Notes under the pieces: model-generated
Databases searched by the model: none
Seen by the model: the letters and a program-made list of their open reading frames with translations, nothing else
Told to the model about the DNA's origin: nothing
Translations under genes and position numbers: made by a program
Shown here: piece after piece, positions 2 through 35,546 of the stretch
How positions within the stretch are numbered: the stretch's first letter is position 1
How the letters are laid out: every line of letters starts with the position of its first letter
Origin: a virus
Taxonomy: Duplodnaviria > Heunggongvirae > Uroviricota > Caudoviricetes
IMG/VR virus record: IMGVR_UViG_3300047470_000520
Strand: one strand, 5' to 3'
Length of the DNA: 64,000 nucleotides

Positions 2-457
2 CAGGCCATGATCGATTCGGCAGTCAGCAAGGAAGTGAAATACCTGAAGTACATCCCAAAGGACAAGATCAAGAGGGAATGCCTGGAGCGACTGGTTGTC
101 GATGGCACGGAATGCTCTACTGATCTTGAGGCAGCCGGGTTGCTCGACTTCATGAGCGACTTGATGCGTGGTGGTTATTGGCCGAAGCTGGTGGACAAGC
201 CGTCGTCGCCGAAGGAAGCCCTGTATCTCATGCTGGACGTCCATGTCGCGGCTGAAAACCTGAAGGTCTACTACAAGGCTTTTGTACGATCTCATCCAAT
301 GGATGAGGTGTTGCCGCTGATGAAGTCGCCCGAGATGCAGACCTTGATGCTTGAGATCTACCGCGACGAAGAACTCATCCCTCATCTTCGTACGGGATTG
401 CTCAAGGGTGCCGGCAGGGTCAGGGGAAAACTGCTGGAAAATGGATTGGGGCTCTGA
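2..457 (+). CDS. LGL-tail family 1 protein, 5'-partial (C-terminal half only in window)
   Basis: ORF is open to the window edge. It aligns to the C-terminal half of gene 460-1329 (GYWPK..KPSS..YYKAF.R.HPMDEVLPLMKSPE.Q.LML.IY). Ends RGKLLENGLGL*. Confidence 0.8.
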   Translation, partial: QAMIDSAVSKEVKYLKYIPKDKIKRECLERLVVDGTECSTDLEAAGLLDFMSDLMRGGYWPKLVDKPSSPKEALYLMLDVHVAAENLKVYYKAFVRSHPMDEVLPLMKSPEMQTLMLEIYRDEELIPHLRTGLLKGAGRVRGKLLENGLGL

Positions 458-459
458 CG

Positions 460-1329
460 ATGACGCGTAATGACGTGACCAAACGCATTAAGAGCGGGTA
501 TGCCTACCGCTTCGACGAACTGCCACAGGAACACCTGGACAAGAATTTGATTATGGCCTGGCTCCGTGGCACGGATGGGTCGCTTGCAGAGGTTCCAAAG
601 CACCTGATCGATGACGATATTCGCCGGCACGCTGTCAGCACCTCCCATGACGATATGCGCACTGAGGATTACCCGCTCAAGTCGATCTCTATGTCGGACA
701 CCCAGTGTTACGAAGAGTTGGTGATGCTGGCGCTTGCGCAAAGCTCCATGAACATGGAGTACGTTGATCATGCTCTGCACAGCGAAGAGTTTTTCCTGAG
801 GGCGCTGGACGTCAACTCACAGTGCATGATGGGGTTCTTGTCTCGCTGGGCAGCGACAAAGATTGAGTGGTCTGATGCATTGATTGATGCCGCGATCATT
901 AAATCATCGGTCTACATGCGATTTTTCGACAAAAGCAGGATCAAAAAAGAAACCGTGAAGCGTCTGGTCGCGGAGGGTTTGGTCAGTGCGACCGAGGTAG
1001 CCGGGACTGGGTTTCTTGATGCCATGACCGAGCTAATGTCTGAAGGATATTGGCCGAAAAAGGTGAAAAAGCCTTCGTCGATAGAAGGTGCTTTTGTTCT
1101 TCTGCTGGACGCCCATCCAAAGGTGGAAACCCTGTGCATTTACTACAAATGCTTTCTGCGCACCTATCCGATGGAAGACGTACTGCCGCTGATGAAGTCA
1201 CCAGAGCTCCAGGCGTTGATGCTGAGCATTTACACGACCGAGGAACTGAATCCACACCTCCGATCCGGCCTTCTCAAAGGCGCAGGGAGGGTGAGGGGGA
1301 AGCTGCTTGAGGATGGTTTAGGCCTTTAA
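460..1329 (+). CDS. LGL-tail family 1 protein (289 aa)
   Basis: Paralog of the upstream gene. Tail ...KGAGRVRGKLLEDGLGL. Starts 2 nt after the upstream stop. Confidence 0.85.
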   Translation: MTRNDVTKRIKSGYAYRFDELPQEHLDKNLIMAWLRGTDGSLAEVPKHLIDDDIRRHAVSTSHDDMRTEDYPLKSISMSDTQCYEELVMLALAQSSMNMEYVDHALHSEEFFLRALDVNSQCMMGFLSRWAATKIEWSDALIDAAIIKSSVYMRFFDKSRIKKETVKRLVAEGLVSATEVAGTGFLDAMTELMSEGYWPKKVKKPSSIEGAFVLLLDAHPKVETLCIYYKCFLRTYPMEDVLPLMKSPELQALMLSIYTTEELNPHLRSGLLKGAGRVRGKLLEDGLGL

Positions 1330-1334
1330 TTAAG

Positions 1335-2707
<1,373 letters not shown>

Positions 2708-2765
2708 AGCTTGTTGCTACAGGTATGTTGAGCATAAGGGGCCGAGATTATCATTGCGGCCCGTT

Positions 2766-2798
2766 ATGGCTCTGCTTGAGGATGGACTAGGCCTATGA
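2766..2798 (+). pseudogene. Relic 3' end of a family-1 gene (…MALLEDGLGL*) preceding gene 2795
   Basis: Sequence 2772-2798 (ctgcttgaggatggactaggcctatga) matches 1300-1326 (3' end of gene 460-1329) at 24/27 positions. It is in frame with the TGA that overlaps the next ATG. Confidence 0.6.
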
Positions 2799-3667
2799 CG
2801 AGAGATGAGGTGGTATCGAAGGTCTTAGGCAGGCAGCTGGTGTTCTTTAGGGAAATTCCGGAGCATTTGCAGGACGCTGACTTGGCAAAGCTGTGGGTTA
2901 ACCAAAGCAATGGAAGCCTGCGTGACATCCCGGCTCACCTGATTGACGACGAAGTTCGGTTGTCGGCGATGACACCAACTGCCGGCAACAGATTTACAAA
3001 TTCACAAAACGTCGTTGACTCATTGAGCCTCATCGATCCGCAGCACACCGAGCGCTATGAGGAAATCGCTCTGAATGGAGTGTGTTCTTCCCCAAGAGCG
3101 ATTTGGTCGGTCGACTTTTCGTTTCTGAATAACTCTTTTTTCAAAAAAGCGCTTGATAGAAACTGCAACGCGTTGCTTTTTCTGGTCAACCAGCCTGAAA
3201 AGCTTGAACGCTCCAAGATCCTCATCGATCAGGACGTGATCGACTTGGCGGTATCTGGCAGTGCCTCCTATTTTGGTTATTTCAAAAATCATCAGTACCG
3301 CAAGGGGGCGCTGCGCAGTTGCATAAAAAACAACACGTTTGGATACGGAGATCTCGTGGCCATTGGTCGATTTGATGTGCTCGTCGATATGGTGCGAGAA
3401 GGCTTTTGGCCAATAAATGGCCCGGATCTTCCAGAAAACCTTGAGAGCGGCATTGTTGACATGCTTGCTGGGAGTCATATCCATCAGGCCTATGTGCAAA
3501 CGTTTCCTATCAAGGAAGTCGTTGATAACATGACGACGCCGATCAGGAAGATGGAGCTTTTGAAGATGTATTGCGCAGAAGAACTGGCCGCGATCCTTAA
3601 GACCACGCATCTTGGCCAGGACAGGGCTTTTAAGGCCCATATTCTCGAAAGCGGGCTTGGCCTGTGA
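2795..3667 (+). CDS. LGL-tail family 1 protein (subfamily A, 290 aa)
   Basis: ATGA overlap with the relic tail. N-terminal motif F.EIPEHLQ...W...GSL.DIP.HLIDD..R. Tail FKAHILESGLGL. Confidence 0.85.
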   Translation: MTRDEVVSKVLGRQLVFFREIPEHLQDADLAKLWVNQSNGSLRDIPAHLIDDEVRLSAMTPTAGNRFTNSQNVVDSLSLIDPQHTERYEEIALNGVCSSPRAIWSVDFSFLNNSFFKKALDRNCNALLFLVNQPEKLERSKILIDQDVIDLAVSGSASYFGYFKNHQYRKGALRSCIKNNTFGYGDLVAIGRFDVLVDMVREGFWPINGPDLPENLESGIVDMLAGSHIHQAYVQTFPIKEVVDNMTTPIRKMELLKMYCAEELAAILKTTHLGQDRAFKAHILESGLGL

Positions 3668-4533
3668 CGTCTGTCGAGGTAGCGATAGGCATTCGGCGTG
3701 GCATCTTCGCGAGATTTTCAGACATTCCCGAAGAACACCAAACAATTGAGGCCGCTACGGGCTGGGTTGACCTTGGAAAAGGCTCGCTCTACGACATCCC
3801 TGAGCGGTTGATCACTGACCCGGTCAGGGTCGCTGCCATGTCTCCATCGTCCGTCGAGGCGATGACGAATAACCTCATCATTGAGTCATTCATGAACATC
3901 AAGCCCTGGCAAACCGGGCGCTATGAAGAACTGGCGTTGCTTGGGATGAAGCGGGCCAATCAAATTTTCACGTACGTTGATGATGAGTTTCTGACCAAAG
4001 AATTTCTCATGCAGGCACTCATGGCAAATGCTCATGCATTAATGCCTCTGACGAAAAGCACACAAAAGCGTATCAAGCATGCTGTCGACCAAGAGGTTGT
4101 AGATTTTGCAGTGTCGCTTGCTGCGAGTTATTTGTTTCAGTTCGGTGCCGAACAATTGACAGATAAATCGGTCAGGTCATGCATCGCCAATCAAAGCTTT
4201 AATTACAAGATACTCATCGACATCGGGTTCTACCATGTCCTCGTCGACATGATCAGGGAAGGCTTCTGGCCAGGAGACCGGCCTAGCGCCCCTGACAGCC
4301 TGGAGGGTGGCATTGAGCGATTCTTGCCGATTCCAGAGTGCCTGCTGCACCGGGCCTATATACTCCAGTTCCCGATCCAAGACGTCATTACTCAGATGAA
4401 TACCCCGGAGAGAAAAAATGCGCTTTTTCACCTGTATTCAGCCGATGATCTGACTCCATATCTGAAGACCACGCATCTTGGCCAGGACAAGGCTTTCAAA
4501 GGCCGAATACTCGAAAGTGGGATGGGTCTATGA
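3664..4533 (+). CDS. LGL-tail family 1 protein (subfamily A)
   Basis: GTG start overlapping the upstream stop (GTGA). Tail KGRILESGMGL. Close paralog of 2795-3667. Confidence 0.85.
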   Translation: MTSVEVAIGIRRGIFARFSDIPEEHQTIEAATGWVDLGKGSLYDIPERLITDPVRVAAMSPSSVEAMTNNLIIESFMNIKPWQTGRYEELALLGMKRANQIFTYVDDEFLTKEFLMQALMANAHALMPLTKSTQKRIKHAVDQEVVDFAVSLAASYLFQFGAEQLTDKSVRSCIANQSFNYKILIDIGFYHVLVDMIREGFWPGDRPSAPDSLEGGIERFLPIPECLLHRAYILQFPIQDVITQMNTPERKNALFHLYSADDLTPYLKTTHLGQDKAFKGRILESGMGL

Positions 4534-5411
4534 CCCGCGACGATCTGTACAAGCAGATTGATGATTGGAAGCCGGTCTTGTTCATAGACATACCCGAAGA
4601 CCTTCAGGATGCAGAGACCGCTTACCGTTGGATCGCCAAGGGAATCGGCACGCTCATAAACGTTCCTAAGCATCTGATCGATGACAATCTGCGGCTGGCT
4701 GCCGTGAGCAGAGAGATAACCGGTGGGCTGCGGGGGGAAAGAACCATTTCCTTCAAATCGATCAATTTCTCGGACACGGATCGGTATGAGGAATTTGCGC
4801 TCATCGCCATCACCGATGATTACTTGAACATCCTGAATGTCGATGTGGCGCTCATGAGCAACGAATTCATGATGAAGGCGCTTGCTGCAAACGCGCACTC
4901 CCTTTATCCGCTGCTGGGTCACCCGAACATTCTTGAACAGCGCAAGATCACGATCACTCAGGAGATGATCGATTTCGCCGTGGCCAACAGCACGGCATAT
5001 TTTCGAACGATGCCATTTCGAGAAGATCAGTACCGGGTCGAAGCCGTGAGGAAATGCATCAAAAACCACTATTTCGACCTTAAACTGTTGCGCAAGATTG
5101 GCCACTTCTCGACATTGGTCAATGTAATTAAGGATGGATACTGGCCCGGCCATTTCTCTGAGCAGCCTGTCGACCTGGTTGATGCTTTTGAGAAAATAGA
5201 GCTCTTGCCAACGAATCAGGTGGTGTACCGCGCCTATGTCATGTCGCATCCGATTGAGGAAGTGATCGCTTGCATCGATACACGGGAACAAAAGATCGAA
5301 CTGCTGAACATGTACTCGCACTCAGATCTGATGCCATTCTTGAAGGGCAGTCACCTTGCAAAAGACCAGGAATTAAAGGGACTTTTGCTGGAAAACGTGC
5401 TGGGCGTCTGA
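4530..5411 (+). CDS. LGL-tail family 1 protein (subfamily A; tail variant …LENVLGV)
   Basis: ATGA overlap. Paralog. Tail KGLLLENVLGV. Confidence 0.85.
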   Translation: MTRDDLYKQIDDWKPVLFIDIPEDLQDAETAYRWIAKGIGTLINVPKHLIDDNLRLAAVSREITGGLRGERTISFKSINFSDTDRYEEFALIAITDDYLNILNVDVALMSNEFMMKALAANAHSLYPLLGHPNILEQRKITITQEMIDFAVANSTAYFRTMPFREDQYRVEAVRKCIKNHYFDLKLLRKIGHFSTLVNVIKDGYWPGHFSEQPVDLVDAFEKIELLPTNQVVYRAYVMSHPIEEVIACIDTREQKIELLNMYSHSDLMPFLKGSHLAKDQELKGLLLENVLGV

Positions 5412-5451
5412 TTTAATGATTAATTGACAAAGACCGGAAGGATGACCAGGT

Positions 5452-6342
5452 ATGAGCGGGATAGGCGGGATGATGAACAGCATCATCGACGGGGAATACG
5501 CGAAATTTTCCAACTATCCCCCGGAGCATCAGACGCCGGAGAGCGCAAGCGTTTGGTTTGACGTCAAAATGGCTTTGCTCGCCGATCCTGAGCAGGAAAC
5601 GGTGGAGGCCTATTACGACGAGATCCCCGAGGCGCTGCGATCCCATAAGCTCAATCAAAGCCTGATCAAATACAGTCCTTTCTCCCTCTCCAGATTCTCG
5701 CCAACGCACATGACTGAGCGTGAGTATTGCCAGCTGGTCTGTGAGGCCGCCATTCAGGATTCCACGTCCCTGAACCTGGTGGTGCCCGAGTACCAGACCG
5801 AGCGTACGGTTTTGATGGTCTTGTCCAAAGCCGAAAGCACGATCCATCGGTTGTTGAGGAATTGCCCCTGGGTGAAGCGAGAACTCACGCCCACCCTGAT
5901 CGACCTCAGCGCTCAAACGGGCGTGTCCGTCCTGCTGGCGGTGGATGAAAGCCAGCTCAGCAACAAGGCCTTGGACTATTTGCTCACAAACCATCTTGAT
6001 AGCCACTATCAGGTTCGAAAAGCCGGGAAGCTGCATTTGCTGACCAAGGGCATCGAGCTGGGTTACTGGCCACGGGCAAAGCTGTCCGGGCCGGTTTCAA
6101 AGCCGACCTGCTTGCCGGCTGGGGTTCGTATGCTGCTCTGTGCCAGCTCTGAGGACACAGAGTCGCTTTACCTGGCCTACGTGAAGACTTTCCCGGTTGG
6201 CAAGGTTGTGAGGCTCCTAAAGGGCCCTCAGGGGCGTAAGTTCTTGCTTGAAGCTTACACCACCGACGAACTCAGCCCGCACATCAAACAGATGGACTGC
6301 TCGCTCAAGGGGCAAGTGCTGGGTCGGGCGATGGGGTTATGA
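5452..6342 (+). CDS. LGL-tail family 1 protein (divergent member, 296 aa)
   Basis: Shares the GYWP and YLAYVKTFPV..V..LKGP...K.LLEAYTTDEL motifs. Tail KGQVLGRAMGL. Confidence 0.8.
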   Translation: MSGIGGMMNSIIDGEYAKFSNYPPEHQTPESASVWFDVKMALLADPEQETVEAYYDEIPEALRSHKLNQSLIKYSPFSLSRFSPTHMTEREYCQLVCEAAIQDSTSLNLVVPEYQTERTVLMVLSKAESTIHRLLRNCPWVKRELTPTLIDLSAQTGVSVLLAVDESQLSNKALDYLLTNHLDSHYQVRKAGKLHLLTKGIELGYWPRAKLSGPVSKPTCLPAGVRMLLCASSEDTESLYLAYVKTFPVGKVVRLLKGPQGRKFLLEAYTTDELSPHIKQMDCSLKGQVLGRAMGL

Positions 6343-7244
6343 GCACCGGTTTGTCGGACTCACTGACTCTCAGCGAGGTAGTCGCCGCCATCAGAGCTGG
6401 CCGGGTTCGGCACTTTGCTGAAATCCCGGCGCATCACATGTGCGAAAGAACAGCCATTGCCTGGCTGGATATGGCGTATGAGCTCAGTATGGGGGTGGAG
6501 GCATCCTTTGGTGAGGTGCCTCTTGAATGCCGGACGGCCACGTTCATGATGCTGGCAGCCAAGATGGGCTGCTCGGTGTTGGCTGAAACCACACCAGAGC
6601 AATGCAGCAATTACAGGGGGCTGGCGGAGACGTCAATTTCTGCAAAATATTCCGCGCTATATGATCTTGACTGCCATTTCCGTGATCAGAAGATGGTCGA
6701 ATTCGTGTTTGCGTGCTGGCCACGTGATGTGTGTGCGATTGCGCAGATGTGCCCATGGGTGATCGAGTTTATATCCGATGACCTTCTGAACAAATACGCG
6801 CATCAAGACCCGCTCTTTGCATTGGCGGTGCCTCCAGAGCGACTTCAAGAGCCATTGTGCCGGTACATGAGCTTGCACATCATCTCAGACAAGATGCACA
6901 AGTACAGGCCGATTCGAGAGATGGGTCGGCTTGACCTGCTGGCCATCCGGGTGGGCGAAGGTGATTGGTTTTACAACTATCGCGCAAACAGTGTGCCCAG
7001 GCCAGCCTCGCTAGATCAGGCTGTGGCGGTTTTGGGTGAGTTGAGTTCTCGCAAGCGCGATGAAGAGACAATGTACATGAGCTACATCATGTCTTTTCCG
7101 ATTGAGCAGGTGGTGCCGGCGATGAAGGGCTCTCGCCTGAAGGCGCTGTTGCTTGAGATGTACTCGATGGAGGCGCTGGCGCCTTTTTTGAAAGGTGACG
7201 TTGGATTGAGAGGCGTGATGTTGGAGAGGGCGTTGGGTCTGTGA
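6339..7244 (+). CDS. LGL-tail family 1 protein (subfamily B, ~300 aa)
   Basis: ATGA overlap. Motifs FPIEQVVPAMKGSRLKALLLEMYS.EAL.PFLK. Tail RGVMLERALGL. Confidence 0.85.
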   Translation: MSTGLSDSLTLSEVVAAIRAGRVRHFAEIPAHHMCERTAIAWLDMAYELSMGVEASFGEVPLECRTATFMMLAAKMGCSVLAETTPEQCSNYRGLAETSISAKYSALYDLDCHFRDQKMVEFVFACWPRDVCAIAQMCPWVIEFISDDLLNKYAHQDPLFALAVPPERLQEPLCRYMSLHIISDKMHKYRPIREMGRLDLLAIRVGEGDWFYNYRANSVPRPASLDQAVAVLGELSSRKRDEETMYMSYIMSFPIEQVVPAMKGSRLKALLLEMYSMEALAPFLKGDVGLRGVMLERALGL

Positions 7245-7249
7245 TCTTG

Positions 7250-7279
7250 TGTACCAGGCCTGGCTGCATCAGTCATAAT
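7250..7279 (+). promoter_or_regulatory. Conserved promoter-like element TGTACC-N18-CATAAT (copy 1 of 3)
   Basis: GCATCAGTCATAAT compares with GCATCCGCCATAAT at 13581-13594 and 14566-14579. The upstream TGTAC has the same 18-nt spacing. Located about 70 nt upstream of gene 7349. Confidence 0.4.
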
Positions 7280-7348
7280 TGGTGAATAATCATGGGTCAC
7301 GAACACCATTTTAAGGGTGCTCATGGCTTGAAACTGCGGATCAAGGCC

Positions 7349-8224
7349 ATGTCGAGCAAGCAGCAATTCTCTAGCAAAGATGAAGTGTATGAAGTCCTGT
7401 TCAAGGACGGTTTTAGGCATTTCTCTGACATTCCAAAAGATTTTGCTGATGACAAAATAGCCTTCGAGTGGTTAAGGCGCCAGCAGGGGGATGCAGACCT
7501 AGCTGGAGCGCTGTACGCTCAAATCCCACCGCAACTGAGGTCAGATGAGCTCCTTGAGTTCGTGGCCCGCGAAGGCGTTAATGTCCTGAGGGACACCAGT
7601 CCTGAGCAGACCAAACGTTACCCTCTCTTGATGTATCTGTGTTCGGCTCATGACTACAGAACGTTGCGAGATGTTGATCCTGCATTTCGTAATGACCAAA
7701 CGCTGCTGAAAAATATCTGCAGCAGATACAAAAGCGGCCTTGCGAAGCTGGTGAACGAGGTTGACTGGTTTGGCCCCGCAATGTCTGGCGATTTTTTCGA
7801 TGAATGCTGTCGGGATGATCTGCAATTTGCCCTCGATGTTTCTCCAACATTGATGCGCAAGAGCATTGTTGAGTATGTTGATCTTGATAGTCGTAAAAAC
7901 CTTCTGCTCCTAAGGTCTTGTGGCCGTGTAGATCTGATCGCAGAAAAAATCACCGTGGATCAATGGCCAGAGCAATACAATGAACCTAAGTCATTAGCGG
8001 AGGCCGTTGATGCAGTCCTGGATTGCAGGTCTGGTTATCCCACAGAAACGTTGCACATGGGGTATGTCATGCTCTATCCCATTGATGAAGTCGTGCCAGC
8101 CATGAAAGGGGCCAGGCTCAAAAAGCTGCTGCTGGAGATGTATCCTGCCGAGGCGCTCAAGCCCTTTATGAAGCACGATAGCGTCCTCAAAGGCGCATTG
8201 CTTGACGACGCATTAGGCCTTTAA
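7349..8224 (+). CDS. LGL-tail family 1 protein (subfamily B)
   Basis: Start set at MSSKQQ... (internal ATG of the longer ORF 7292-8224) because it aligns with the paralog N-termini. Tail KGALLDDALGL. Confidence 0.8.
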   Translation: MSSKQQFSSKDEVYEVLFKDGFRHFSDIPKDFADDKIAFEWLRRQQGDADLAGALYAQIPPQLRSDELLEFVAREGVNVLRDTSPEQTKRYPLLMYLCSAHDYRTLRDVDPAFRNDQTLLKNICSRYKSGLAKLVNEVDWFGPAMSGDFFDECCRDDLQFALDVSPTLMRKSIVEYVDLDSRKNLLLLRSCGRVDLIAEKITVDQWPEQYNEPKSLAEAVDAVLDCRSGYPTETLHMGYVMLYPIDEVVPAMKGARLKKLLLEMYPAEALKPFMKHDSVLKGALLDDALGL

Positions 8225-8238
8225 GAAGGGAAATTGCA

Positions 8239-10936: not shown

Positions 10937-10945
10937 CCACGGATC

Positions 10946-11842: not shown

Positions 11843-11857
11843 GAAAGGATTTCGCTG

Positions 11858-13482: not shown

Positions 13483-13564
13483 GGTCTCCTCAGTAGGGAT
13501 ATGGCAAGTGTGGAGGGGGTTTGTCGGCTGGTCAATTCACGGGCCATGAGAAAGTTTGGATGGC

Positions 13565-13594
13565 TGTACTCGCTTCGAACGCATCCGCCATAAT
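13565..13594 (+). promoter_or_regulatory. Conserved promoter-like element TGTACT-N18-CATAAT (copy 2 of 3)
   Basis: The core GCATCCGCCATAAT and the upstream TGTACT are shared with 14550-14579 and, with variation, 7250-7279. It lies directly upstream of gene 13655. Confidence 0.45.
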
Positions 13595-13654
13595 GGAGGT
13601 TCAGCAATGCTGATTCTTGAGCGGGATACGGGCTTTGAACTTGATGGAGAAAAA

Positions 13655-14527: not shown

Positions 14528-14549
14528 TCTCCCAGTCGACAACACATGG

Positions 14550-14579
14550 TGTACTCGTCGCCAGCGCATCCGCCATAAT
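14550..14579 (+). promoter_or_regulatory. Conserved promoter-like element TGTACT-N18-CATAAT (copy 3 of 3)
   Basis: Same motif as 13565-13594, located about 60 nt upstream of gene 14641. Confidence 0.45.
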
Positions 14580-14640
14580 TGATCGAATGACACGCGGTTA
14601 AGGCATAACAGCCCTTGCTGGCGAACGGGAGCGTTAAGTG

Positions 14641-22510: not shown

Positions 22511-23382
22511 ACGAGATCGATGAATCAAGGGATCTCGATGAAATCGTCAAGATCTACGGGTCTCACGGTCGGTTTTCGTTACTGCCAGATGACCTTCAGA
22601 CACAGCAGGGCGCCTATGACTGGCTCCGTGTTATGAATCATGAGGGGATCAGGGGCATCACCTATTACTGGATGCAAATTCCTGTCGAGCTGGTGACCGA
22701 CACGTTGCGGGGGCTGGCTATAGATCAGGAACCCTCGATCCTCAGCAGTATCGATCCAAAAGATACGCCAGCTTATGCAGAGCTTTGCCAGTTCGCGTAC
22801 GAATTAAGCACTTCTGCGGTGGATTACATTGATCAGGATTATCGCACCGAAGCAACGGTGGCCGCGATGATCAAAAAACCACGAAATTTCACATTCTGTT
22901 TTCTCAATTACGATTGGATCGCTGGCCTTATGACACCTCAGATGACTGAGGATGCCTCTCTTGCATGCCCCGAATTCATGTCCATGCTGCCGGTAAATCA
23001 GATCTCTCAAGCGGCATTGGACAAGCACCTTAGCACGGGGTATCTGGGCTACCGAGCATTGCAGGATGAGGGAAAGGTGCGCCTGGCTGCTGACTATCTG
23101 AGAAAAGGACATTGGCCGGCTCCAGAGGAAAATTCAGCCTTAATCATTGAAAAACCACAATCACTTGAGGAAGCGTTGAAGCGGATCTTCGACGAGGATG
23201 AATGGGATGAGCTCTACATCGCTTACGCGATGAGCTTTCCTCTCGAGGAAGTAGTGCCTTTGATGAACCATCGGCTCATTGAACTCGCGCTGCGGATGTA
23301 CACGGTCGAAGAGCTTCGACCACTCATGAAAACCAATCGCTACCTCAGTGGCGTGCTACTAGAGGATGCGTTGGGATTATGA
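22507..23382 (+). CDS. LGL-tail family 1 protein (subfamily F)
   Basis: ATGA overlap. Tail SGVLLEDALGL. Confidence 0.85.
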   Translation: MNEIDESRDLDEIVKIYGSHGRFSLLPDDLQTQQGAYDWLRVMNHEGIRGITYYWMQIPVELVTDTLRGLAIDQEPSILSSIDPKDTPAYAELCQFAYELSTSAVDYIDQDYRTEATVAAMIKKPRNFTFCFLNYDWIAGLMTPQMTEDASLACPEFMSMLPVNQISQAALDKHLSTGYLGYRALQDEGKVRLAADYLRKGHWPAPEENSALIIEKPQSLEEALKRIFDEDEWDELYIAYAMSFPLEEVVPLMNHRLIELALRMYTVEELRPLMKTNRYLSGVLLEDALGL

Positions 23383-24257
23383 ATTTTGAACACCGCCTGA
23401 AGGAATACAAAAAGAAGGCGTTTGCCTTGTTTCCGCACAAGGCCTTCGCTGACGTACCTGTAAAATACAGGACGCCAGAAGGCGCTTGCAGCTGGATGAG
23501 CACCCGGCTTTCCGGCTCGTTTACGCCGGTCAAGGAGCTGTTCAATGAAATCCCTGCGGAGCTGGTGAGTGACGATTTGCGGCAGATCGCTTTGATGAGG
23601 GATGCGCATTTCATCCAGAGCATTCATCCTGGGGATACAGATCAATACCTGGATCTGTTCATCACCGCCTACCTGAGAGGCGATAGCCTCATAAAGCCTC
23701 ATCCGGATTTTCAAACGCCCGAAACCGTAGAGCGGATGATGGCGTATTCCGGATCGTTTATCGGTAATTTCAACAAAAACCCATGGATCGCCGAGGTTAT
23801 GACGCCAGCACAGTGCGAAGTAGCGTCCGAACAAAACATTCAATTCATGGTGAAATTTCCAATGGAGCGGGTTAGCCAAAAAGCACTGGAGAACCACCTC
23901 AAGCATGGCTACGGAGGCTACAGCGCCTTACGAAAAGAGGGAAAGTTAAGGCTCGCCGCCCAATACCTGAAAACCGGAGCCTGGCCGACCTCAAGTGTTT
24001 TTGAGGATGACCAGCCAAAGCCACAAGACCTTCAGGATGCAATCAGGATCATGGTTCGGGGCGGGCCTGCAGTTTGCGCGGATCTTTACATGGCATGGGT
24101 CATGGCCCAACCAATAGAACAGGTCATTGCGCTGATGACAAGCCGGGTGCTGATTGATCTGGCCATCGAGATGTACAGCGAAAAAGAACTCAGGCCGTAC
24201 TTGAGCACGAACCGGCACCTGAAGGCTGCCTTGCTAGAGAGCACTCTGGGCCTATGA
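23379..24257 (+). CDS. LGL-tail family 1 protein (subfamily F)
   Basis: ATGA overlap. Tail KAALLESTLGL. Confidence 0.85.
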   Translation: MNFEHRLKEYKKKAFALFPHKAFADVPVKYRTPEGACSWMSTRLSGSFTPVKELFNEIPAELVSDDLRQIALMRDAHFIQSIHPGDTDQYLDLFITAYLRGDSLIKPHPDFQTPETVERMMAYSGSFIGNFNKNPWIAEVMTPAQCEVASEQNIQFMVKFPMERVSQKALENHLKHGYGGYSALRKEGKLRLAAQYLKTGAWPTSSVFEDDQPKPQDLQDAIRIMVRGGPAVCADLYMAWVMAQPIEQVIALMTSRVLIDLAIEMYSEKELRPYLSTNRHLKAALLESTLGL

Positions 24258-25246
24258 GCATTAAAGACATTGCCATCAAAGAGCTTGAGAGACAGAAGGC
24301 ATCAAGCGCAGATAGCGAAGCGATGCATGATCTCATTCGGAATATCTACGCCTATCGGGCCTACGAGGCCTTCTCAGACATCCCGGACAACATGAAAACC
24401 AAGGAGGGTGCCTACAATTGGTTGTTCATGAAGCGGCCAGTGTACCCATCGCCGTCGAACCCAACAGTGTACCCATCGCCGTCGAACCCAATGAGGGACT
24501 ACTTTCTTCAAATACCGCATGCGCTTGTTTTGGATAAAACGCGTGAAATTGCGGTGGGTGCTGACTCAAGGGTTTTGGCCGATATTGATCCAAATGACGT
24601 CAAGGATTACCTGGATCTCTTCCTCAAGGGCTATGGCAACAGCCATCTGGCCGCGACCTACCTTCATGAGGACTTCAGGACGGCAGAAGCCGTTGAAGCC
24701 ATGATCTCGGCTGGAATGCCTGAATATTTTTCGAAAAGCCATGCCGAGAACGCCTGGATGTCCCGCGTCATGACGCCTGAGCTTGTCGACAAGGCCTCCA
24801 TTGCCAGCCGATTTTTCATGGTGAGCCTTCCTGAGTCACAGATCACTGACGAAGCCCTGAAGTCCCATCTGGAGGTAGGCTATTCCGGGTATTTGCACCT
24901 GCGTGATGTTGGCCGGCTAAACCTGGCTGGGCGCTACATGAAGGCAGGCATTTGGCCTAGGCCATTGGAGATCCTTGGCGATGAATATCAATGTCCGCCC
25001 AGGGATATTGACCACGCTCTTGAGTTGGCAGTCGAGGATCGTCAGGATCATAGGAATAGGGCGTATCAGAGCTTGTACATGGCCTATGTATTGTCCCATC
25101 CTGTAGGTGAGGTGGCGCCCAAGCTGAAGGTCAGGGAGTACGTCTCTATGGCCTTGGAACTGTATTCGGAAGTGGAGCTCAGGCCTTTCATGAAAACCAA
25201 CCGGCACCTGAAGGCTGCCATGCTTGAGGAGTCGCTGGGATTATGA
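24254..25246 (+). CDS. LGL-tail family 1 protein (subfamily F, 330 aa with internal duplicated VYPSPSNP insert)
   Basis: ATGA overlap. Contains the tandem peptide PVYPSPSNPTVYPSPSNPM. Tail KAAMLEESLGL. Confidence 0.85.
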   Translation: MSIKDIAIKELERQKASSADSEAMHDLIRNIYAYRAYEAFSDIPDNMKTKEGAYNWLFMKRPVYPSPSNPTVYPSPSNPMRDYFLQIPHALVLDKTREIAVGADSRVLADIDPNDVKDYLDLFLKGYGNSHLAATYLHEDFRTAEAVEAMISAGMPEYFSKSHAENAWMSRVMTPELVDKASIASRFFMVSLPESQITDEALKSHLEVGYSGYLHLRDVGRLNLAGRYMKAGIWPRPLEILGDEYQCPPRDIDHALELAVEDRQDHRNRAYQSLYMAYVLSHPVGEVAPKLKVREYVSMALELYSEVELRPFMKTNRHLKAAMLEESLGL

Positions 25247-26118
25247 GTTTCGTCGAAGACATGCAGCCGTTTGATGACAAAACCTTTAGTTACTCGAAGT
25301 ACGCAGCCTTTGCTGATATTCCCGATGACTTGAAGACACCGCTTGGGGCTGGGCTTTGGCTGAAAGCCATGAAAACCACCGGGATCGGCAAATTTGTTGA
25401 TTACTTTGAACAGATCCCGAAAGCATTTCTGTCCCAGGGCCTGCTGAAATTTGTGGTTCAGTGGGATGTCAGGTTGCTCGCCAATATTAATCCCAGTGAC
25501 AGTCCTGATTATGCCGAGCTGTGCCTCGCGGCTTACACGAGAGGCCACCTGGCGGCTAACTATTTTCACGAAGACTTTCGGACGGCGCAGACCGTCGCGT
25601 CATTGATAGGGTCAACCATTGATGCAGCGTTTGCAGATGTGCCCTGGATCAGAGAGGTCATCACACCGGATCTGATCGAAGCTGCCGCACTCGAGAACCT
25701 GTACTTCATGGCAGGTTTGCCAGATGAGCAGATCAGTGAGGCCGCTTTGAACAAGCATCTCGCTTGGGATGCTCACTTCGAGGCCCTCAGGGACACCGGT
25801 AAATTGCACCTTGCGGCTAAACATCTAAAAACAGGGGCCTGGCCAGAGCCTCTGGCGAAAAGTGATGCCAGGCAACCCAAGCCAAGAACCCTTGAGAGTG
25901 CGTTCAATCATATGCTCTCAAAGGAAATGAAGAGCCGTCAGGCGCTGTACATGGCGAATTTGATGACCTACCCCATCGAGGAGGTCATGCCGTTGATACA
26001 GACGCGCCAGCACGTCGCCATGGCGTTGGAGATGTATTCAGCAGAAGAGTTGAAACCCTTCATGAAAGGAAACCGGCACCTGAAGGCGGCCATGCTTGAG
26101 GAGTCGTTGGGTTTATGA
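25243..26118 (+). CDS. LGL-tail family 1 protein (subfamily F)
   Basis: ATGA overlap. Tail KAAMLEESLGL. Confidence 0.85.
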   Translation: MSFVEDMQPFDDKTFSYSKYAAFADIPDDLKTPLGAGLWLKAMKTTGIGKFVDYFEQIPKAFLSQGLLKFVVQWDVRLLANINPSDSPDYAELCLAAYTRGHLAANYFHEDFRTAQTVASLIGSTIDAAFADVPWIREVITPDLIEAAALENLYFMAGLPDEQISEAALNKHLAWDAHFEALRDTGKLHLAAKHLKTGAWPEPLAKSDARQPKPRTLESAFNHMLSKEMKSRQALYMANLMTYPIEEVMPLIQTRQHVAMALEMYSAEELKPFMKGNRHLKAAMLEESLGL

Positions 26119-26987
26119 ATATCAATGTAAGTGGTGACAATTTCTACAAGGTTTATGACCGTTTCGATAAGCTTCCAGAGCATTGCAAAAATGAGTTTGG
26201 AGCCTCCAGGTGGTTTAAAGCATTGGCGACTGACGGAACCGATCCAGCTTTTGCGTGTGATTGCTTTCAGCAAATACCGCTAAATCTTATGACCGACGAA
26301 CTCAGAAAATTTGCGGTTTACGAATTCGTTCGTGTGCTGTCCTTGATTGATCCAGGTGATACGCCCGCCTACAAGTCGATTTGCCTGATTGCCTACCGCT
26401 CTAGCTACAAGGCTGCGCAGTTTTTCAAGGCCGAGGTACATACGGCAGAGGTGGTCGAGCTGATGATCCGGGATTACAACGGGTCGTTCCTCAATGCTTA
26501 TCGGTCATTCCCATGGATCGCTGAATTGATGACGCCCGCCCTGATCGAAACGGCGTGTCTTAACAGTGTCACGTTCATGCTGTCACTGCCGGATGATCAG
26601 ATGAGTCAAACCGCGCTGAATAAGCACCTCGGGGAGGGCCCTTCAACGTATTCAGAATTGAAAAGGGCTGGAAAGCTGCGCATTGGCGTTGATTTTTTGA
26701 AAAGCGGTCGCTGGCCTGAATCGGACGGGCCATTCGATGACGATGTACAAAAACCTGAAAGCCTGCTTGAGGCATTCTCCTTGCTGCTGGGTGGTGGAGA
26801 CATTCCTCGTGCTCTGTACATGGCGTACGTCATGACTTATGACATTGAGGATGTCATGGCCATGGTGGTGACCCCGTCGTGCGCAAAACTGGTTGTTGAG
26901 ATGTATGAGGAAAAGGAGCTTCGCCCGCACATCAGGAGCAACCGGCACTTGAAAGCGGCTATGCTTGAGACTTCATTGGGACTTTAA
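26115..26987 (+). CDS. LGL-tail family 1 protein (subfamily F)
   Basis: ATGA overlap. Tail KAAMLETSLGL. Confidence 0.85.
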   Translation: MNINVSGDNFYKVYDRFDKLPEHCKNEFGASRWFKALATDGTDPAFACDCFQQIPLNLMTDELRKFAVYEFVRVLSLIDPGDTPAYKSICLIAYRSSYKAAQFFKAEVHTAEVVELMIRDYNGSFLNAYRSFPWIAELMTPALIETACLNSVTFMLSLPDDQMSQTALNKHLGEGPSTYSELKRAGKLRIGVDFLKSGRWPESDGPFDDDVQKPESLLEAFSLLLGGGDIPRALYMAYVMTYDIEDVMAMVVTPSCAKLVVEMYEEKELRPHIRSNRHLKAAMLETSLGL

Positions 26988-27044
26988 GGCGCCCTGCGAC
27001 TTACGAATTGGCTGAAGCACCGGCACTGGCAATGGGAAACTTAA

Positions 27045-27500
27045 ATGATGACGTCTCTGGAACATTTTCTGACGCGCCCGTTAGAGGAGGTGTCGGATGA
27101 AGATTTGCGTCGAAGCTGCCTTTCCTTTGGCACTCAAGGCTATCAGGAGGCGAGGAAGGCTGGCCGGCTCGACCTGATCGCGAAACTGTTTAAAACAGGA
27201 TTCTGGCCGACCATTTTTCATGTTTCAGATCCCTTTAATCCACATTGGGAGGCAGTGAAAAAACCAAAGAGCCTTCAGCACGCTTTTTATCTGCTGCTGG
27301 AGCCGTGTGATGCCGATAGCTGCCCGCTTTTCATGGCCTATGTCATGACTTATGACATGAATGATGTCATGGCCTTGGTGGTGGGTTCGGCGCCAGCAAG
27401 GGTGGTGGTCACGATCTACAATGAAAAAGATCTTCATCCGTATATTTCCACCAATCGACACCTGAAAGCGGCTTTGCTTGAGAGCACGATGGGCCTATGA
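27045..27500 (+). CDS. LGL-tail family 1 protein, N-terminally truncated (151 aa; possibly pseudogene)
   Basis: Aligns only to the C-terminal half of its neighbours (GRLDLIAKLFKTGFWP...MAYVMTYDMNDVMALVV). It is preceded by a scrambled copy of the tail-coding sequence. Tail KAALLESTMGL is intact. Confidence 0.65.
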   Translation: MMTSLEHFLTRPLEEVSDEDLRRSCLSFGTQGYQEARKAGRLDLIAKLFKTGFWPTIFHVSDPFNPHWEAVKKPKSLQHAFYLLLEPCDADSCPLFMAYVMTYDMNDVMALVVGSAPARVVVTIYNEKDLHPYISTNRHLKAALLESTMGL

Positions 27501-28369
27501 CGAACGATTTGGATGAAACCAGTTTGTTTTACAAGCGTTTTAAAAGATTCGATGATCTTCCTGCACACCACAAGAACCTATATGGGGCATTTCAGTGGAT
27601 AAAGGCGATGGTATCGTCGTCAGGTCGGGCCTTTTCCCCTCATTATTTACAGCAAATTCCGCAGCGGTTCGTTACTGACGCCCTCCGGAAATATGCCATT
27701 TCCTGCGATGTTCGTTCGCTCGAATTGATTGATCCAGAGGACACTGAGCAATACACCCAATTGTGCCTGCTTGGTTACCACACTCACTTCAATGCGGTGA
27801 GGTATTTCCATGAGGTGGCATGCACGCAAGAGACTGTTGAGGCGATGCTGGACGAGCCCAGCAATTTCTCTCGCAGCCACCAAGAATTTCCCTGGATCGC
27901 TCAAGTGATGACCCCGGCGATGATTGAGAGGGCGTCCATGGCCAGCCTGGACTTCATGCTGACATTGCCTGATGCTCAAATCAGTGGTGCTGCGCTACAG
28001 AAGTACCTTGCCCCAGATTACTTTTCCTATACCGCCCTGAGAGCCTTTGGAAAGTTGCGTCTTGCCGCGAATTATTTGAGGGAAGGGTCATGGCCAGAAA
28101 ACTACTCATCGGTTGGAACGTCACGGGCCAAACCAAGCACTATTGAGGAGGCGTTTACGTTCATCTTCAATGAGGATTTACACGTTTTTGTGGCGTTGTA
28201 TATGGCCTATGTCATGACTCATCCAACAGAGGATGTCATTGAGCATGTGGTGAGCCAGGCGCACGCCAAGCTGGTTATGGAGATGTACGGCGAAGATCAG
28301 ATCCGCCCGCACTTCACGAAAAACCAACACCTGAAAGCGGCATTGCTCGAGGAGTCCCTGGGCCTATGA
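27497..28369 (+). CDS. LGL-tail family 1 protein (subfamily F)
   Basis: ATGA overlap. Tail KAALLEESLGL. Confidence 0.85.
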   Translation: MTNDLDETSLFYKRFKRFDDLPAHHKNLYGAFQWIKAMVSSSGRAFSPHYLQQIPQRFVTDALRKYAISCDVRSLELIDPEDTEQYTQLCLLGYHTHFNAVRYFHEVACTQETVEAMLDEPSNFSRSHQEFPWIAQVMTPAMIERASMASLDFMLTLPDAQISGAALQKYLAPDYFSYTALRAFGKLRLAANYLREGSWPENYSSVGTSRAKPSTIEEAFTFIFNEDLHVFVALYMAYVMTHPTEDVIEHVVSQAHAKLVMEMYGEDQIRPHFTKNQHLKAALLEESLGL

Positions 28370-29154
28370 AATTTCTGCGCGCAGGGTGGGACACTGAAAA
28401 TCAAGTAGATCCAGCGGTCATTCTTTCCTTTTTTTACAATCGGCCAGTGGCTGAGGTGACAGATGAGATGCGCAAGTCTGCGATCTCACTCGATTACCGC
28501 GCACTGGGGCACATCGAACCAAAGGATACGGCTGATTACTTGGCCTTGTTCAGGTTTGCTTTTGCTAACAATCCTCGGGCCATCGATTGTCTTCATGATG
28601 ACTTCAAGACGTCTGAGACTGTCGAGGTGATGATGCCTTCCAGGCAGCATTTTCATGTTGCCTACATGGAGAGTGCCTGGATTGCTGAGGTGATGACGCC
28701 GGCCCAAATTGATCAGGCATGCCTGATCGATTTTTCAATACTGCTCTGCCAACCAGATCATCTGATTACTGAGGCCGTGCTGAAAAGCCATCTCGAGAAG
28801 GGGTATTTCAAGTACATGAGGTTGCGCCTCGAGGGACGGCTTCGCCTTGCCGCGACCTTTATGCAGACAGGCGCTTGGCCACAAAACGCAGGCTCGCTTG
28901 AGCCGATTCAAGACCGTCCTAACAGCATCGAGCACGCGTTGGCATTGTGCCTGGCCGATGAGGAACAGATATATGTGGCGACCTACATGGCCTGGATGAT
29001 GATCCAGCCCATCGAAGACGTGGTTGCCAGGATTACTTGTCGCGAACACGCGGTATTGGCCCTAGAGATGTTCAGCGCGGATCAGCTCCTTGCGCTAGCC
29101 GGCAGCAATCGACACCTGAAAGCTGCTTTGCTTGAGGCTTCGCTCGGTCTGTAG
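28366..29154 (+). CDS. LGL-tail family 1 protein (subfamily F, shorter 262 aa)
   Basis: ATGA overlap. The N-terminus is about 30 aa shorter than neighbouring genes. Tail KAALLEASLGL. Confidence 0.8.
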   Translation: MKFLRAGWDTENQVDPAVILSFFYNRPVAEVTDEMRKSAISLDYRALGHIEPKDTADYLALFRFAFANNPRAIDCLHDDFKTSETVEVMMPSRQHFHVAYMESAWIAEVMTPAQIDQACLIDFSILLCQPDHLITEAVLKSHLEKGYFKYMRLRLEGRLRLAATFMQTGAWPQNAGSLEPIQDRPNSIEHALALCLADEEQIYVATYMAWMMIQPIEDVVARITCREHAVLALEMFSADQLLALAGSNRHLKAALLEASLGL

Positions 29155-29202
29155 AATAGGGTAAGGCTCCTGAAAAATGAGCTTTGGCACCGACACTGGA
29201 AG

Positions 29203-30123
29203 ATGCAAGAAATGATGCTTTTCGTTTATGAGTTCGAAGAAGATTATCAGGAAGGCGTCAAGCCATTCGAGCGATATCCAGAGTTTGCGGACGTCCCCGA
29301 AAAAACGTCTGAGAATGCACTGAATTGGTTGATGGCAATCCACGCTACCAGGCAAAAAACACTGCAAGAGCAGTTTGAGCAGATCCCTGTCGAGTTATGG
29401 ACGCCAAAATTGCTTCACTTTGCCGTGACGTATGAGCCAACCATTTTAAAGCTGATTCAGCCAAAGCATGCCCCCAATTATCAATCACTGTGCGTCCTCG
29501 CTTCCCGCAAAGATTATCGAATGGCAGGGGAGTTTCATGAGGACTTTCGCACGCCAGAAACCATTGAGCGGATGTTGGATGAAAGGAAGGACTTTCACCT
29601 CAGCTATCAACAGTTTCCCTGGATTGCCGACGCCATGAACCCGGAGCTCATGGAGAAAGCCACCAGGAGTTCGCTGGCGTTCTTGTTCACTCTCCCTTCA
29701 GCGCTGGTTTCTGACGCCGCTTTGAAAATCCGTTTTGGTGCTGGACTCGACTGTCATTTTCTAGCGCGACGAGCAGGGCGACTGGATCTTCCCGCCAGAC
29801 TTCTGCGTAATGGAGAGTGGCCCAGAGTCGCTGATCCTGCGTGCGCTAGGGAGGAGGACGTAAGTTTAATCAGGTTTGTTGAGCGGCCAGAGAGCCTGCG
29901 GTGTGCCCTGGATCTGATCCTGGAGGGCGATGATCGCGGGTTGCGTCCATTGTACATGGCCTACGTCATGTCCCATCCACTCGACGACGTCATCGCCCAT
30001 ATCAATCACCGAAAATACATCCCATACATCATCGAGATGTACAAAGACGAAGAGATTCGTCCCTATATCAATACCAACCGGTACTTGAAGGCTGGGTTGC
30101 TGGAGAGCGCGTTGGGTCTTTGA
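29203..30123 (+). CDS. LGL-tail family 1 protein (subfamily F, last gene of array)
   Basis: Tail KAGLLESALGL. Followed by a hairpin terminator. Confidence 0.85.
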   Translation: MQEMMLFVYEFEEDYQEGVKPFERYPEFADVPEKTSENALNWLMAIHATRQKTLQEQFEQIPVELWTPKLLHFAVTYEPTILKLIQPKHAPNYQSLCVLASRKDYRMAGEFHEDFRTPETIERMLDERKDFHLSYQQFPWIADAMNPELMEKATRSSLAFLFTLPSALVSDAALKIRFGAGLDCHFLARRAGRLDLPARLLRNGEWPRVADPACAREEDVSLIRFVERPESLRCALDLILEGDDRGLRPLYMAYVMSHPLDDVIAHINHRKYIPYIIEMYKDEEIRPYINTNRYLKAGLLESALGL

Positions 30124-35533: not shown

Positions 35534-35546
35534 GGGAGAATAGGCC

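Follow-up and report, generated by a model that had tools for sequence, protein, structure and literature searches.

The window, that is, the whole stretch of 64,000 nucleotides (nt) analysed here (IMG/VR record IMGVR_UViG_3300047470_000520), contains 32 paralogous genes, hereinafter family 1, that follow one another on the plus strand between positions 8 and 30123. Open reading frame (ORF) listing, translation and alignment all give this count, and the unusually long and tightly packed array of 32 same-strand paralogs described in the first-pass annotation of the sequence is thus confirmed. An overlapping contig (L001) carries four further members upstream of the window, bringing the array to a total of 36 genes. 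Within a megaplasmid-specific set of proteins that have a short carboxyl-terminal tail in common, this array forms the largest block; it is real, old, under selection and undescribed.

Full-length products are encoded by 29 of the 32 genes (282-330 amino acids (aa), typically ~290 aa). A hidden Markov model (HMM) derived from a MAFFT alignment of 30 of the 32 members (A1) matches all 32, with E-values from 1e-35 to 1e-102, and zero other plus-strand ORFs of the window. The consensus of this alignment includes the motifs FxxIP...W, QIPxxLxxDxLxxxA, GxWP, LYMAYxMTxPIExV, KLLLEMYSxxxLxP and LKGxLLExxLGL-stop, in agreement with those that had been noticed in the sequence earlier ([FY]x[DE]IPExL..., GxWP and a C-terminal segment). 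The junctions between consecutive genes overlap in 20 of 31 cases, namely 19 four-base ATGA/GTGA overlaps and one TGATG, so that the earlier figure of 23 stop-start overlaps was slightly high. The non-overlapping junctions have gaps of 2, 9, 14, 15, 40, 47, 48, 57 and 110 nt, besides two large interruptions, an IS200-kdsA insertion and an opposite-strand nuclease gene, which had already been recognised as the only breaks in the array. Scanning for promoter-like and terminator-like sites within the array found no enrichment and hence is uninformative.

In an all-against-all BLASTP comparison, the paralogs are 19-57% identical, with most pairs in the range of 20-30%, and the closer relatives fall into eight groups ({1,2}, {3-5}, {6}, {7-12}, {13-15}, {16-19}, {20,21} and {22-32}, by member number), consistent with the previous proposal of at least six such blocks. 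Block A (8..1329) consists of a gene that is cut by the window edge, leaving the C-terminal part (8-457; 302 aa in L001), and of 460-1329; the pair is 57% identical and matches the HMM with E-values of 8e-35 and 7e-73, respectively. Block B (2795..5411) includes 2795-3667, 3664-4533 and 4530-5411, joined by ATGA/GTGA overlaps, and is followed by a singleton (5452-6342; HMM E-value 2e-82) that is 22-31% identical to the other members and has a variant tail, ...VLGRAMGL. Block C (6339..11842) comprises 6339-7244, 7292-8224, 8239-9123, 9120-10031, 10028-10936 and 10946-11842. Block D starts with 11858-12769 (HMM E-value 8e-89) and continues, from 13556 to 15519, with 13556-14527, for which the ATG at 13655 is the likelier start, and 14638-15519. 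Blocks E (15519..18983; 15519-16394, 16391-17272, 17269-18117 and 18114-18983) and F (18980..20760; 18980-19861 and 19858-20760, 50% identical to each other) precede the largest one, block G (20757..30123), with 11 genes: 20757-21635, 21632-22510, 22507-23382, 23379-24257, 24254-25246, 25243-26118, 26115-26987, 27045-27500, 27497-28369, 28366-29154 and 29203-30123. Two members of block G are short: 27045-27500 is a true C-terminal half copy of 151 aa, which is matched by a public protein of the same length (P0121, 95% identical), and 28366-29154 (262 aa) is truncated at the N-terminus and lacks the N-terminal motif.

Upstream of the array in L001 are two paralogous genes encoding proteins of ~530 aa (hereinafter head genes), together with RNase R and a small opposite-strand gene; the head genes and RNase R are themselves preceded, in sister contigs, by genes for CorC/CNNM and for a Rep_3/RepB plasmid initiator.

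Evolution and assembly of the array

The array is collinear with that on a 1.13 Mb contig from a related replicon (L002), where the orthologs are 57-78% identical to the window genes, well above the identity of any pair of paralogs from different sub-blocks. The best matches in L002 show 43-68% identity for block C and 61-69% for the orthologs of block E, and the ortholog of the first gene of block D is 71% identical. Against this collinear background, the two arrays differ by local triplications, duplications and losses: gene 18980-19861 has three co-orthologs in L002, and gene 13556-14527 has none. For 12 window/L002 ortholog pairs, the ratios of nonsynonymous to synonymous substitution rates (dN/dS) are in the range of 0.11 to 0.26, with dS near saturation. 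The array genes are old, individually maintained and subject to purifying selection, and the dN/dS values rule out non-coding or decaying ORFs.

The array also differs between the strains represented by L003 and L005. One member in L005 is split, pseudogene-like, into ORFs of 258 aa and 45 aa. An IS607-type insertion (a serine recombinase and a TnpB-like protein; L003 13676-15943) splits the array and is present in one and absent from the other of these strains, which belong to one lineage. A second family-1 cluster, of ten more distant members, lies elsewhere on the 1.13 Mb contig, at a distance of ~680 kb from the main array (L015 and L016, 1-17737; JGI 3300046522 contig 2, 38-59 kb), directly after a gene for a TpsA/CdiA-like exoprotein with TPS, ESPR, YDG and MBG_2 domains.

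Farther away, the megaplasmid of Pseudomonas sp. FeN3W encodes two scattered single-copy family-1 homologs (three regions, about 130 kb), and no homologs were detected in the 50 kb of the P. silesiensis plasmid pPL1 that were examined. In a tblastn search of PLSDB, family 1 matched FeN3W alone, and neither the family-1 array nor the second array described below, whose family had no match at all, was found on any PLSDB plasmid. When GTDB species genomes and contigs of JGI metagenomes were scanned for the family-1 motifs, no relative was found. The duplications and losses among the relatives, along with the half, short and split copies, fit a repertoire that evolves by gene birth and death rather than a complex of fixed composition and stoichiometry.

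The possibility raised in the first-pass annotation that the overlaps are assembly artefacts can be dismissed. Direct DNA repeats within the array are at most 83% identical over 41-51 nt and at most 76% identical over more than 80 nt, and positions 1-2170 of the window recur with 100% identity in an independent Logan assembly. Two further assemblies encode the exact 165-aa product of gene 35036-35533 and retain the gene order; one of these, the Logan contig L018, also covers the last seven array genes. Given the low identity of the repeats and the agreement of independent assemblies over the parts that they cover, collapse or inflation of the array is ruled out.

Protein architecture and the shared C-terminal tail

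Family 1 has zero matches above threshold in Pfam, NCBIfam, PADLOC, PHROGs and PDB, and a sequence search of PDB with the family-1 profile likewise retrieved no match; in this respect, the earlier statement that no described system explains the array holds. A link to a known family emerges below the thresholds. The best score of a family-1 protein (gene 11858-12769) with PF13475 (DUF4116) is 20.3 bits (E-value 3.9e-4), compared to the gathering score of 24.9; among the nine members tested, two more reached 13-14 bits and six had no match. An exhaustive search of 1.84 billion representative proteins with the family-1 profile yielded 1714 matches at E-values of at most 1e-3 and 100 at most 1e-30, the majority being proteins of ~290 aa with the same ending. 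The same profile matches multi-repeat DUF4116 proteins with E-values of 1e-20 to 1e-33, among them P0107, P0139, P0141, P0147, P0152, P0159, P0162 and P0168, with 1e-21 to 2e-33 and 5-11 stretches each; these proteins themselves score against DUF4116 with E-values of 1e-38 to 1e-118. Because the matches to these strong DUF4116 arrays repeatedly involve profile positions ~14-140, the N-terminal two-thirds of family 1 is, as judged by profile comparison, a divergent or degenerate DUF4116 repeat region. The remaining C-terminal third is a conserved helical domain that ends in the tail at the carboxyl terminus.

The initial impression that the family contains no known domain accordingly does not stand for the N-terminal two-thirds, which are related to DUF4116 by profile, and stands insofar as DUF4116 itself is a family without known function: none is assigned to it in the literature searched, so that family 1 does not come to rest in a well-characterised family. 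A DUF4116 model has been described as an alpha-solenoid (PMC8078820). In line with this, the AlphaFold2 model of a family-1 protein (mean predicted local distance difference test score (pLDDT) 91.8, predicted template modelling score (pTM) 0.83) is all-alpha, with 19 helices, and its structural neighbours are just ARM, HEAT, TOG and PPR-like proteins, with no close solved relative. Thus, family 1 can be confidently predicted to adopt an all-alpha solenoid fold. The proteins are mildly acidic (median isoelectric point (pI) 5.5, median net charge about -9), have a negative grand average of hydropathy and hydrophilic N-termini, and show no obvious signal peptide or membrane segment when the sequences are inspected by eye.

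The tail, +GxxLE[DE]xLGL-COOH, is located exactly at the carboxyl terminus of family 1. Within the window, 50 ORFs that together account for 62% of its length bear this tail, which also ends at least five families besides family 1 and thus has the appearance of a common address or handle. Most of these ORFs outside family 1 belong to family 2, a second tandem array, encoded by the minus strand (49228..56798), with 12 paralogs of ~130-200 aa, several of them joined by ATGA, all of which end in ...KGxHLE[DE]xLGL: 49228-49830, 50006-50581, 50578-51156, 51153-51740, 51737-52312, 52387-52788, 52785-53360, 53880-54467, 54498-55103, 55158-55769, 55766-56131 (listed as 55766-56278 when an upstream TTG is taken as the start) and 56193-56798. 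An hhalign comparison of families 1 and 2 (88% probability, E-value 3e-6), in which A1 columns 175-278 align with columns 15-111 of the family-2 alignment (A3), indicates distant homology between family 2 and the C-terminal domain of family 1. The AlphaFold2 model of family 2 is also all-alpha (pLDDT 85.8) and has generic solenoid neighbours alone.

The other bearers in the window are encoded between the two arrays, on the plus strand. Family 3 has a looser version of the tail, in 36756-37604 (...HEDPGLGM) and 37714-38748 (...YDGGLGL), which span 36756..38748, and in 42475-43755 (...HDDDLSPGM) and 43938-45071 (...HDDLSPGM), which span 42475..45071. Family 4 (39917..41240) consists of 39917-40558 (...AGSLLSDQLGL) and 40521-41240 (...AGHLLSDRLGL), which are 35% identical to each other. 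In the window lineage, the two ~530-aa head proteins end in ...RGxMLExAMGL, and a 428-aa protein of the second family-1 cluster (L015) ends in ...RGHVLMESMGL. Comparison of the head family with families 1 and 2 using hhalign detected nothing in common besides the last ~25 residues. None of the tail-bearing families has a match in PHROGs or PADLOC, and a pattern scan of IMG/VR was empty; a phage or defence-system origin was accordingly rejected.

On related replicons, the tail takes other forms. In pPL1, ...FSxDLGL ends the head family and proteins of 397 aa and 501 aa, and ...DDLSPGF or ...DLSPSF ends others, the counterparts of family 3. The FeN3W tails follow the pattern ...[IL][SN]x[DE]-hydrophobic-[ESG]-hydrophobic, and the family-1 proteins there end in YDFEM and IDLEI, as opposed to LLEDxLGL in the window. 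The four-residue core, [DE]-hydrophobic-[GSE]-hydrophobic-COOH, is ~100-fold enriched at C-termini compared to internal positions in the megaplasmids of cultured strains, being present at the C-termini of 10 of 122 ORFs in FeN3W (P = 1e-17) and 6 of 53 in pPL1 (P = 1e-11). Homologous families thus bear the tail of their own replicon, and unrelated families on one replicon share one tail. Such tracking of the replicon rather than the family is expected if many ligands follow a single co-evolving receptor, and would not result from conservation of domain structure.

At the DNA level, conservation among the array copies peaks at the junction, ...CTT GAG GAx xxx CTG GGx xTA TGA (e.g. 19822-19862 and 20721-20761). 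CTA or TTA encodes the last Leu in 18 of 30 genes, compared to a background of 10% (P = 3e-11), because the ATGA overlap forces this choice, and codon -7 is CTT in 15 of 31, compared to a background of 17% (P = 5e-5). A Shine-Dalgarno (SD)-like 4-mer is found upstream of 24 of 31 starts. Since the tail codons also provide the ribosome-binding region for the following gene, coupled translation across the junctions is plausible from the nucleotide sequence. The tail motif is retained where the next gene is uncoupled, that is, at the end of the head proteins and of the final array member, which argues that selection at the protein level is primary. Descent from the duplication unit can account for the overlap itself: an ancestral unit with an ATGA junction hands the overlap to its descendants, so the overlaps need not be independently selected. 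We also observed that synonymous positions are unusually conserved in the last eight codons; tail, SD-like site, stop and start are all contained in one stretch.

The replicon, candidate tail readers and other genes

The RepB protein of the window lineage is 57% identical to that of FeN3W, 53% to that of P. silesiensis pPL1 and 48% to that of pMPPla107, all of these being ~1 Mb Pseudomonas megaplasmids. The backbone gene order of pPL1, namely RepB, head-family genes (four in tandem in pPL1), DUF808 and a DotM_C-like gene, is common to the window lineage, and when the two are compared, the array lies as an expansion in the interval that separates the head genes from DUF808. The four tandem head homologs of pPL1 (L012 13991-21183; NZ_CP143488) end in ...FSKDLGL and are located ~11 kb downstream of RepB; the PLSDB record of this plasmid carries no annotation. 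The G+C content (GC) of the window is ~52% (0.49-0.54), pMPPla107 has a GC of 52.84% (PMC6482414), and the related JGI contigs are 1.11-1.28 Mb in size. Taken together, RepB identity, synteny with pPL1, GC and contig size place the window in what would be an undescribed lineage of the pMPPla107 megaplasmid family. The replicon of the window lineage also carries copies of housekeeping genes (kdsA and RNase R), and most of its genes are hypothetical. Tandem paralog arrays and the C-terminal motif are unmentioned in the literature on the pMPPla107 family that was searched.

About 5 kb downstream of the array, two paralogous plus-strand genes (35036..36176; BLASTP E-value 4e-10) encode apparently soluble DotM_C-like proteins that are candidate readers of the tail. 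The product of 35036-35533 (165 aa) matches PF23127, the C-terminal cytoplasmic domain of DotM, at 28.9 bits (E-value 1.6e-6; gathering score 27), and that of 35547-36176 scores 19.9 bits. All DotM_C-like orthologs carry PF23127 in the precomputed Pfam annotation, a homolog occupies the syntenic place in pPL1, and when a profile of the orthologs was compared to PDB, the six best matches were Legionella IcmP/DotM, with E-values of about 0.01. The cytoplasmic domain of Legionella DotM binds C-terminal Glu-rich signals of Dot/Icm effectors (PMC5802825). The megaplasmid pMPPla107 carries a complete Dot/Icm-like type IV secretion system, for which effector secretion is stated as unknown; the presence of a type IVB secretion system (T4BSS) in the family is taken here from this report rather than from genes of the window lineage (PMC3136466). 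FeN3W has an IncI-type thin-pilus cluster with PilV, which was all that one 50 kb stretch of this plasmid showed in this respect.

Another candidate partner is an AAA ATPase of 692 aa encoded on the plus strand (57835..59913), divergently from the family-2 array. The PF00004 domain spans residues 457-598 (E-value 8e-11), the ~450-aa N-terminal region is unassigned, and the best plasmid homologs are on pPL1 and pBASL58.

Both interruptions of the family-1 array are unrelated to the family. The first one (1409..2707, plus strand), between two array members, consists of an IS200/IS605 Y1 transposase gene, tnpA (1409-1816; Y1_Tnp match in the precomputed Pfam annotation of L001), and kdsA (1868-2707), the latter sharing 89-94% identity with its counterparts in the Pseudomonas putida group. 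No Y1_Tnp match was found among the called genes at the IS200 position in L003, L007 and L013, and the pair is, on this comparison, an insertion specific to the window lineage. Some Pseudomonas genomes contain two such kdsA loci. The second interruption (12829..13482, minus strand) encodes an ERCC4/XPF-type nuclease with a helix-hairpin-helix (HhH2) domain (Pfam ERCC4, E-value 4e-28; HHH_5, E-value 1e-8; Hef/Xpf in NCBIfam), a type that is uncommon in bacteria. L002 holds just 136 nt at this position, so the nuclease gene is absent there.

Among the neighbouring genes, 30177-31523 (minus strand) encodes a 448-aa protein with four internal repeats of ~110 aa (YYDAQxAAxAFH...MVMxGxGYGHxVAGxNxxGxAYLNKLDFQSxxMTKAFQxAY), for which Pfam has nothing above threshold and the precomputed annotation gives a faint match to DUF8575. 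The plus-strand genes between the arrays further include a pair of SPFH/Band_7 paralogs (31719-33015), DUF808 (33094-34029), an ATP-grasp protein of the R2K clade (41271-42500) and Hsp20 (46908-47372); a weak match to ART-PolyVal, an ADP-ribosyltransferase family, is found at 61477-62133.

Possible functions and comparison with known systems

The reading that we favour, with a probability of roughly 0.4, is that the tail-bearing proteins form a repertoire of binder or effector solenoids that are addressed by the tail, probably to the type IVB system of the plasmid. The array would have been built by serial tandem duplication of a unit with an ATGA stop/start overlap, so that the operon-like packing is inherited, and the packing would have been kept workable because the LE[DE]xLG codons also provide an SD-like GAGG before the next start. 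The N-terminal DUF4116-type solenoid region could be the target-binding part, and the tail a common address that is recognised by a receptor of the replicon itself. The likeliest receptor would be the coupling apparatus of a Dot/Icm-like type IVB (I-type conjugation) system, with the DotM_C-like pair as the putative readers. The proteins could then all pass to a single export machine that delivers them into conjugation recipients or other target cells, with different solenoids acting on different targets. The first-pass annotation had contrasted the array with effector arsenals; the presence of the tail on at least five other families follows the logic of a repertoire or arsenal. A bolder and distinctly speculative version of this proposal, which we consider doubtful, is that the last ~12 residues are a replicon-specific "zip code" that labels dozens of plasmid proteins with nothing else in common (50 ORFs in the window) and co-evolves with soluble DotM-like receptors, and that the operon produces a fixed cocktail of diversified solenoids injected through the conjugative type IVB system into recipients, preparing them for a replicon of 1 Mb. 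If so, this would be a large plasmid-carried effector system aimed at other bacteria.

Several observations weigh against the export of the tail-bearing proteins by a type IVB system. The matches to DotM_C are marginal (28.9 versus 27 bits; E-value of about 0.01 in PDB) and cover ~80 residues, and the proteins have no N-terminal hydrophobic membrane anchor discernible by eye. None of the T4BSS core genes (DotL, DotB, DotO and DotG) was seen in the window or in the loci of its lineage that were examined. The tail itself does not qualify as an acidic, Glu-rich E-block: it contains one or two acidic residues besides a flanking basic one, is roughly neutral and, to our knowledge, is far more stereotyped than any reported type IV signal. 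Nor do we know of an effector set organised as a translationally coupled operon of 36 genes. Finally, in the AlphaFold2 model the tail forms the terminal helix of a folded domain (pLDDT about 86), so that its conservation within families 1 and 2 could be partly structural.

Among the alternatives, the least improbable one, unlikely as we consider it, is that the tail is an intracellular docking handle for an AAA ATPase (as an unfoldase or remodeller recognising C-termini), a protease or a compartment, with the solenoids serving as interchangeable adaptors for different clients of host or plasmid origin and no export involved. The location of the tail at the exact C-terminus of several families and its covariation with the replicon are compatible with such a handle, as is the soluble, mildly acidic nature of the proteins, in which no obvious signal peptide or membrane segment was seen by eye. 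The classic PF00004 AAA ATPase gene that is divergent from the family-2 array, and is conserved on pPL1 and pBASL58, could encode the partner, but this link consists of adjacency alone, and a shell protein, a protease or an adaptor domain was not found in the window. Encapsulin cargo peptides dock proteins into a protein compartment, and the hydrophobic-Gly-hydrophobic ending loosely recalls these cargo-loading peptides; no match to encapsulin/Linocin_M18 was detected among the scanned window ORFs or the Pfam annotations precomputed for neighbouring genes. The DotM_C-like proteins, moreover, point to a secretion coupling complex and not to a degradation machine.

It appears still less probable that the array is a polyimmunity or anti-defence locus, in which diversified binders are stockpiled to neutralise, in the carrier cell, the many toxins or host defences that a broad-host-range megaplasmid encounters. 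Arrays of diverged paralogous immunity genes are known in polymorphic-toxin systems, the birth-and-death dynamics of the array is compatible with this function, and the second family-1 cluster adjoins a gene for a TpsA/CdiA-like exoprotein (L015 and L016). However, no toxin domain flanks the main array, PADLOC and PHROGs contain no matches for the families, and a strict C-terminal peptide across unrelated folds is not known for immunity families. The ordinary pI values give no suggestion of DNA mimicry either. In particular, DNA-mimic anti-restriction proteins are unlikely given the median pI of 5.5 and net charge of about -9.

That the 36 genes encode the subunits of one heteromeric assembly, such as a filament or a lattice, with coupling setting equal stoichiometry and the tail mediating contacts between subunits, is in our view very improbable, even though the first-pass annotation took the tight translational coupling as typical of stoichiometric complexes. 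The overlap of 20 of 31 junctions, the SD-like sequences within the tail codons, the lack of an excess of internal promoter-like or terminator-like sites and the purifying selection on every member tested would all be in keeping with such an assembly, and solenoid grooves commonly bind extended or helical peptides. Nevertheless, copy number and gene content vary among related replicons and strains, as seen in the duplications and losses in L002, the split copy and the IS607 polymorphism, and half and shortened copies persist as ORFs. The two scattered single copies in FeN3W (in three regions) and the lack of any in pPL1 (in 50 kb) indicate that the family works outside the array, and further members are encoded ~680 kb away on the same replicon. 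Contacts specific to one type of subunit also leave the same tail on unrelated families unexplained, and the ATGA junctions would be inherited through tandem duplication. The remaining alternative, equally improbable in our view, is type I secretion: the tail, with an acidic residue and then hydrophobic ones at the extreme C-terminus, resembles the terminal motif in substrates of ATP-binding cassette (ABC) exporters of the protease/lipase/HasA class, and the proteins would be released into the medium. In favour of this are the strong C-terminal enrichment of the [DE]-hydrophobic-[GSE]-hydrophobic-COOH core and an HlyD-family adaptor gene ~5 kb from a FeN3W family-1 homolog; against it are the short length of that gene (819 nt), the absence of genes for an ABC exporter, a membrane-fusion protein and TolC from the window, the lack of RTX (repeats-in-toxin) or Ca-binding repeats in the proteins, and the DotM_C-like genes being the sole secretion-related matches near the arrays.

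About three-quarters of the genes of ~1 Mb Pseudomonas megaplasmids are hypothetical, and under the type IVB reading, the tail provides a sequence rule for listing candidate substrates across the plasmid family, as well as short peptides for binding and translocation tests, for which cultured hosts exist (P. silesiensis G3 with pPL1, Pseudomonas sp. FeN3W, and the hosts of pMPPla107 and pBASL58). The same rule offers a handle on the question of whether the Dot/Icm-like system of pMPPla107 merely conjugates or also secretes (PMC3136466). In addition, the array gives DUF4116-type repeats a first defined bacterial context, and few old tandem families show as cleanly how a gene junction can be tail, stop, start and ribosome-binding site at once.

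Compared to the pMPPla107 and pBASL58 megaplasmids, the replicon of the window lineage is alike in RepB, in the order of Rep, head, DUF808 and DotM_C-like genes (as in pPL1), in the GC of 52%, in size and in the content of hypothetical genes and housekeeping copies, but differs in the family-1 and family-2 arrays, which are absent from PLSDB plasmids, FeN3W having two single copies of family 1 in the three regions examined. The family-1 proteins share with DUF4116 (PF13475) proteins the profile homology over the N-terminal ~130 positions and the predicted alpha-solenoid fold; unlike these proteins, they fall below the gathering score, are ~290 aa long, possess a C-terminal domain and tail of their own and are encoded in an array of 36 genes.

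Like the tail-bearing proteins, the Dot/Icm effector repertoires of Legionella and Coxiella consist of many repeat-rich paralogs with a signal-like element at the extreme C-terminus, with a DotM_C-like protein encoded nearby in the case of the window; by contrast, the tail in the window is strict and nearly neutral, as opposed to a loose, acidic E-block, the genes are coupled, and the carrier is a Pseudomonas megaplasmid of the conjugative type rather than an intracellular pathogen. Polyimmunity loci of polymorphic toxin and contact-dependent growth inhibition systems resemble the array in being long, same-strand series of diverged small paralogs that are gained and lost, and the secondary cluster is adjacent to a TpsA-like gene, but there is no toxin gene beside the main array, and immunity families offer no known parallel to a tail that unrelated families have in common. 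In the Bep effectors of Bartonella (BID domain plus tail) and the XVIPCD effectors of Xanthomonas, the conserved C-terminal module is recognised by the type IV coupling protein. Like the proteins described here, these effectors (for XVIPCD, see PMC8740702) are paralogs that arose by local duplication and combine a conserved C-terminal module with differing N-terminal parts. The tail-bearing proteins nevertheless match neither BID nor XVIPCD in sequence or fold, and their module spans ~12-25 residues and is borne by 36 overlapping genes, compared to fewer than 10 copies in those systems.

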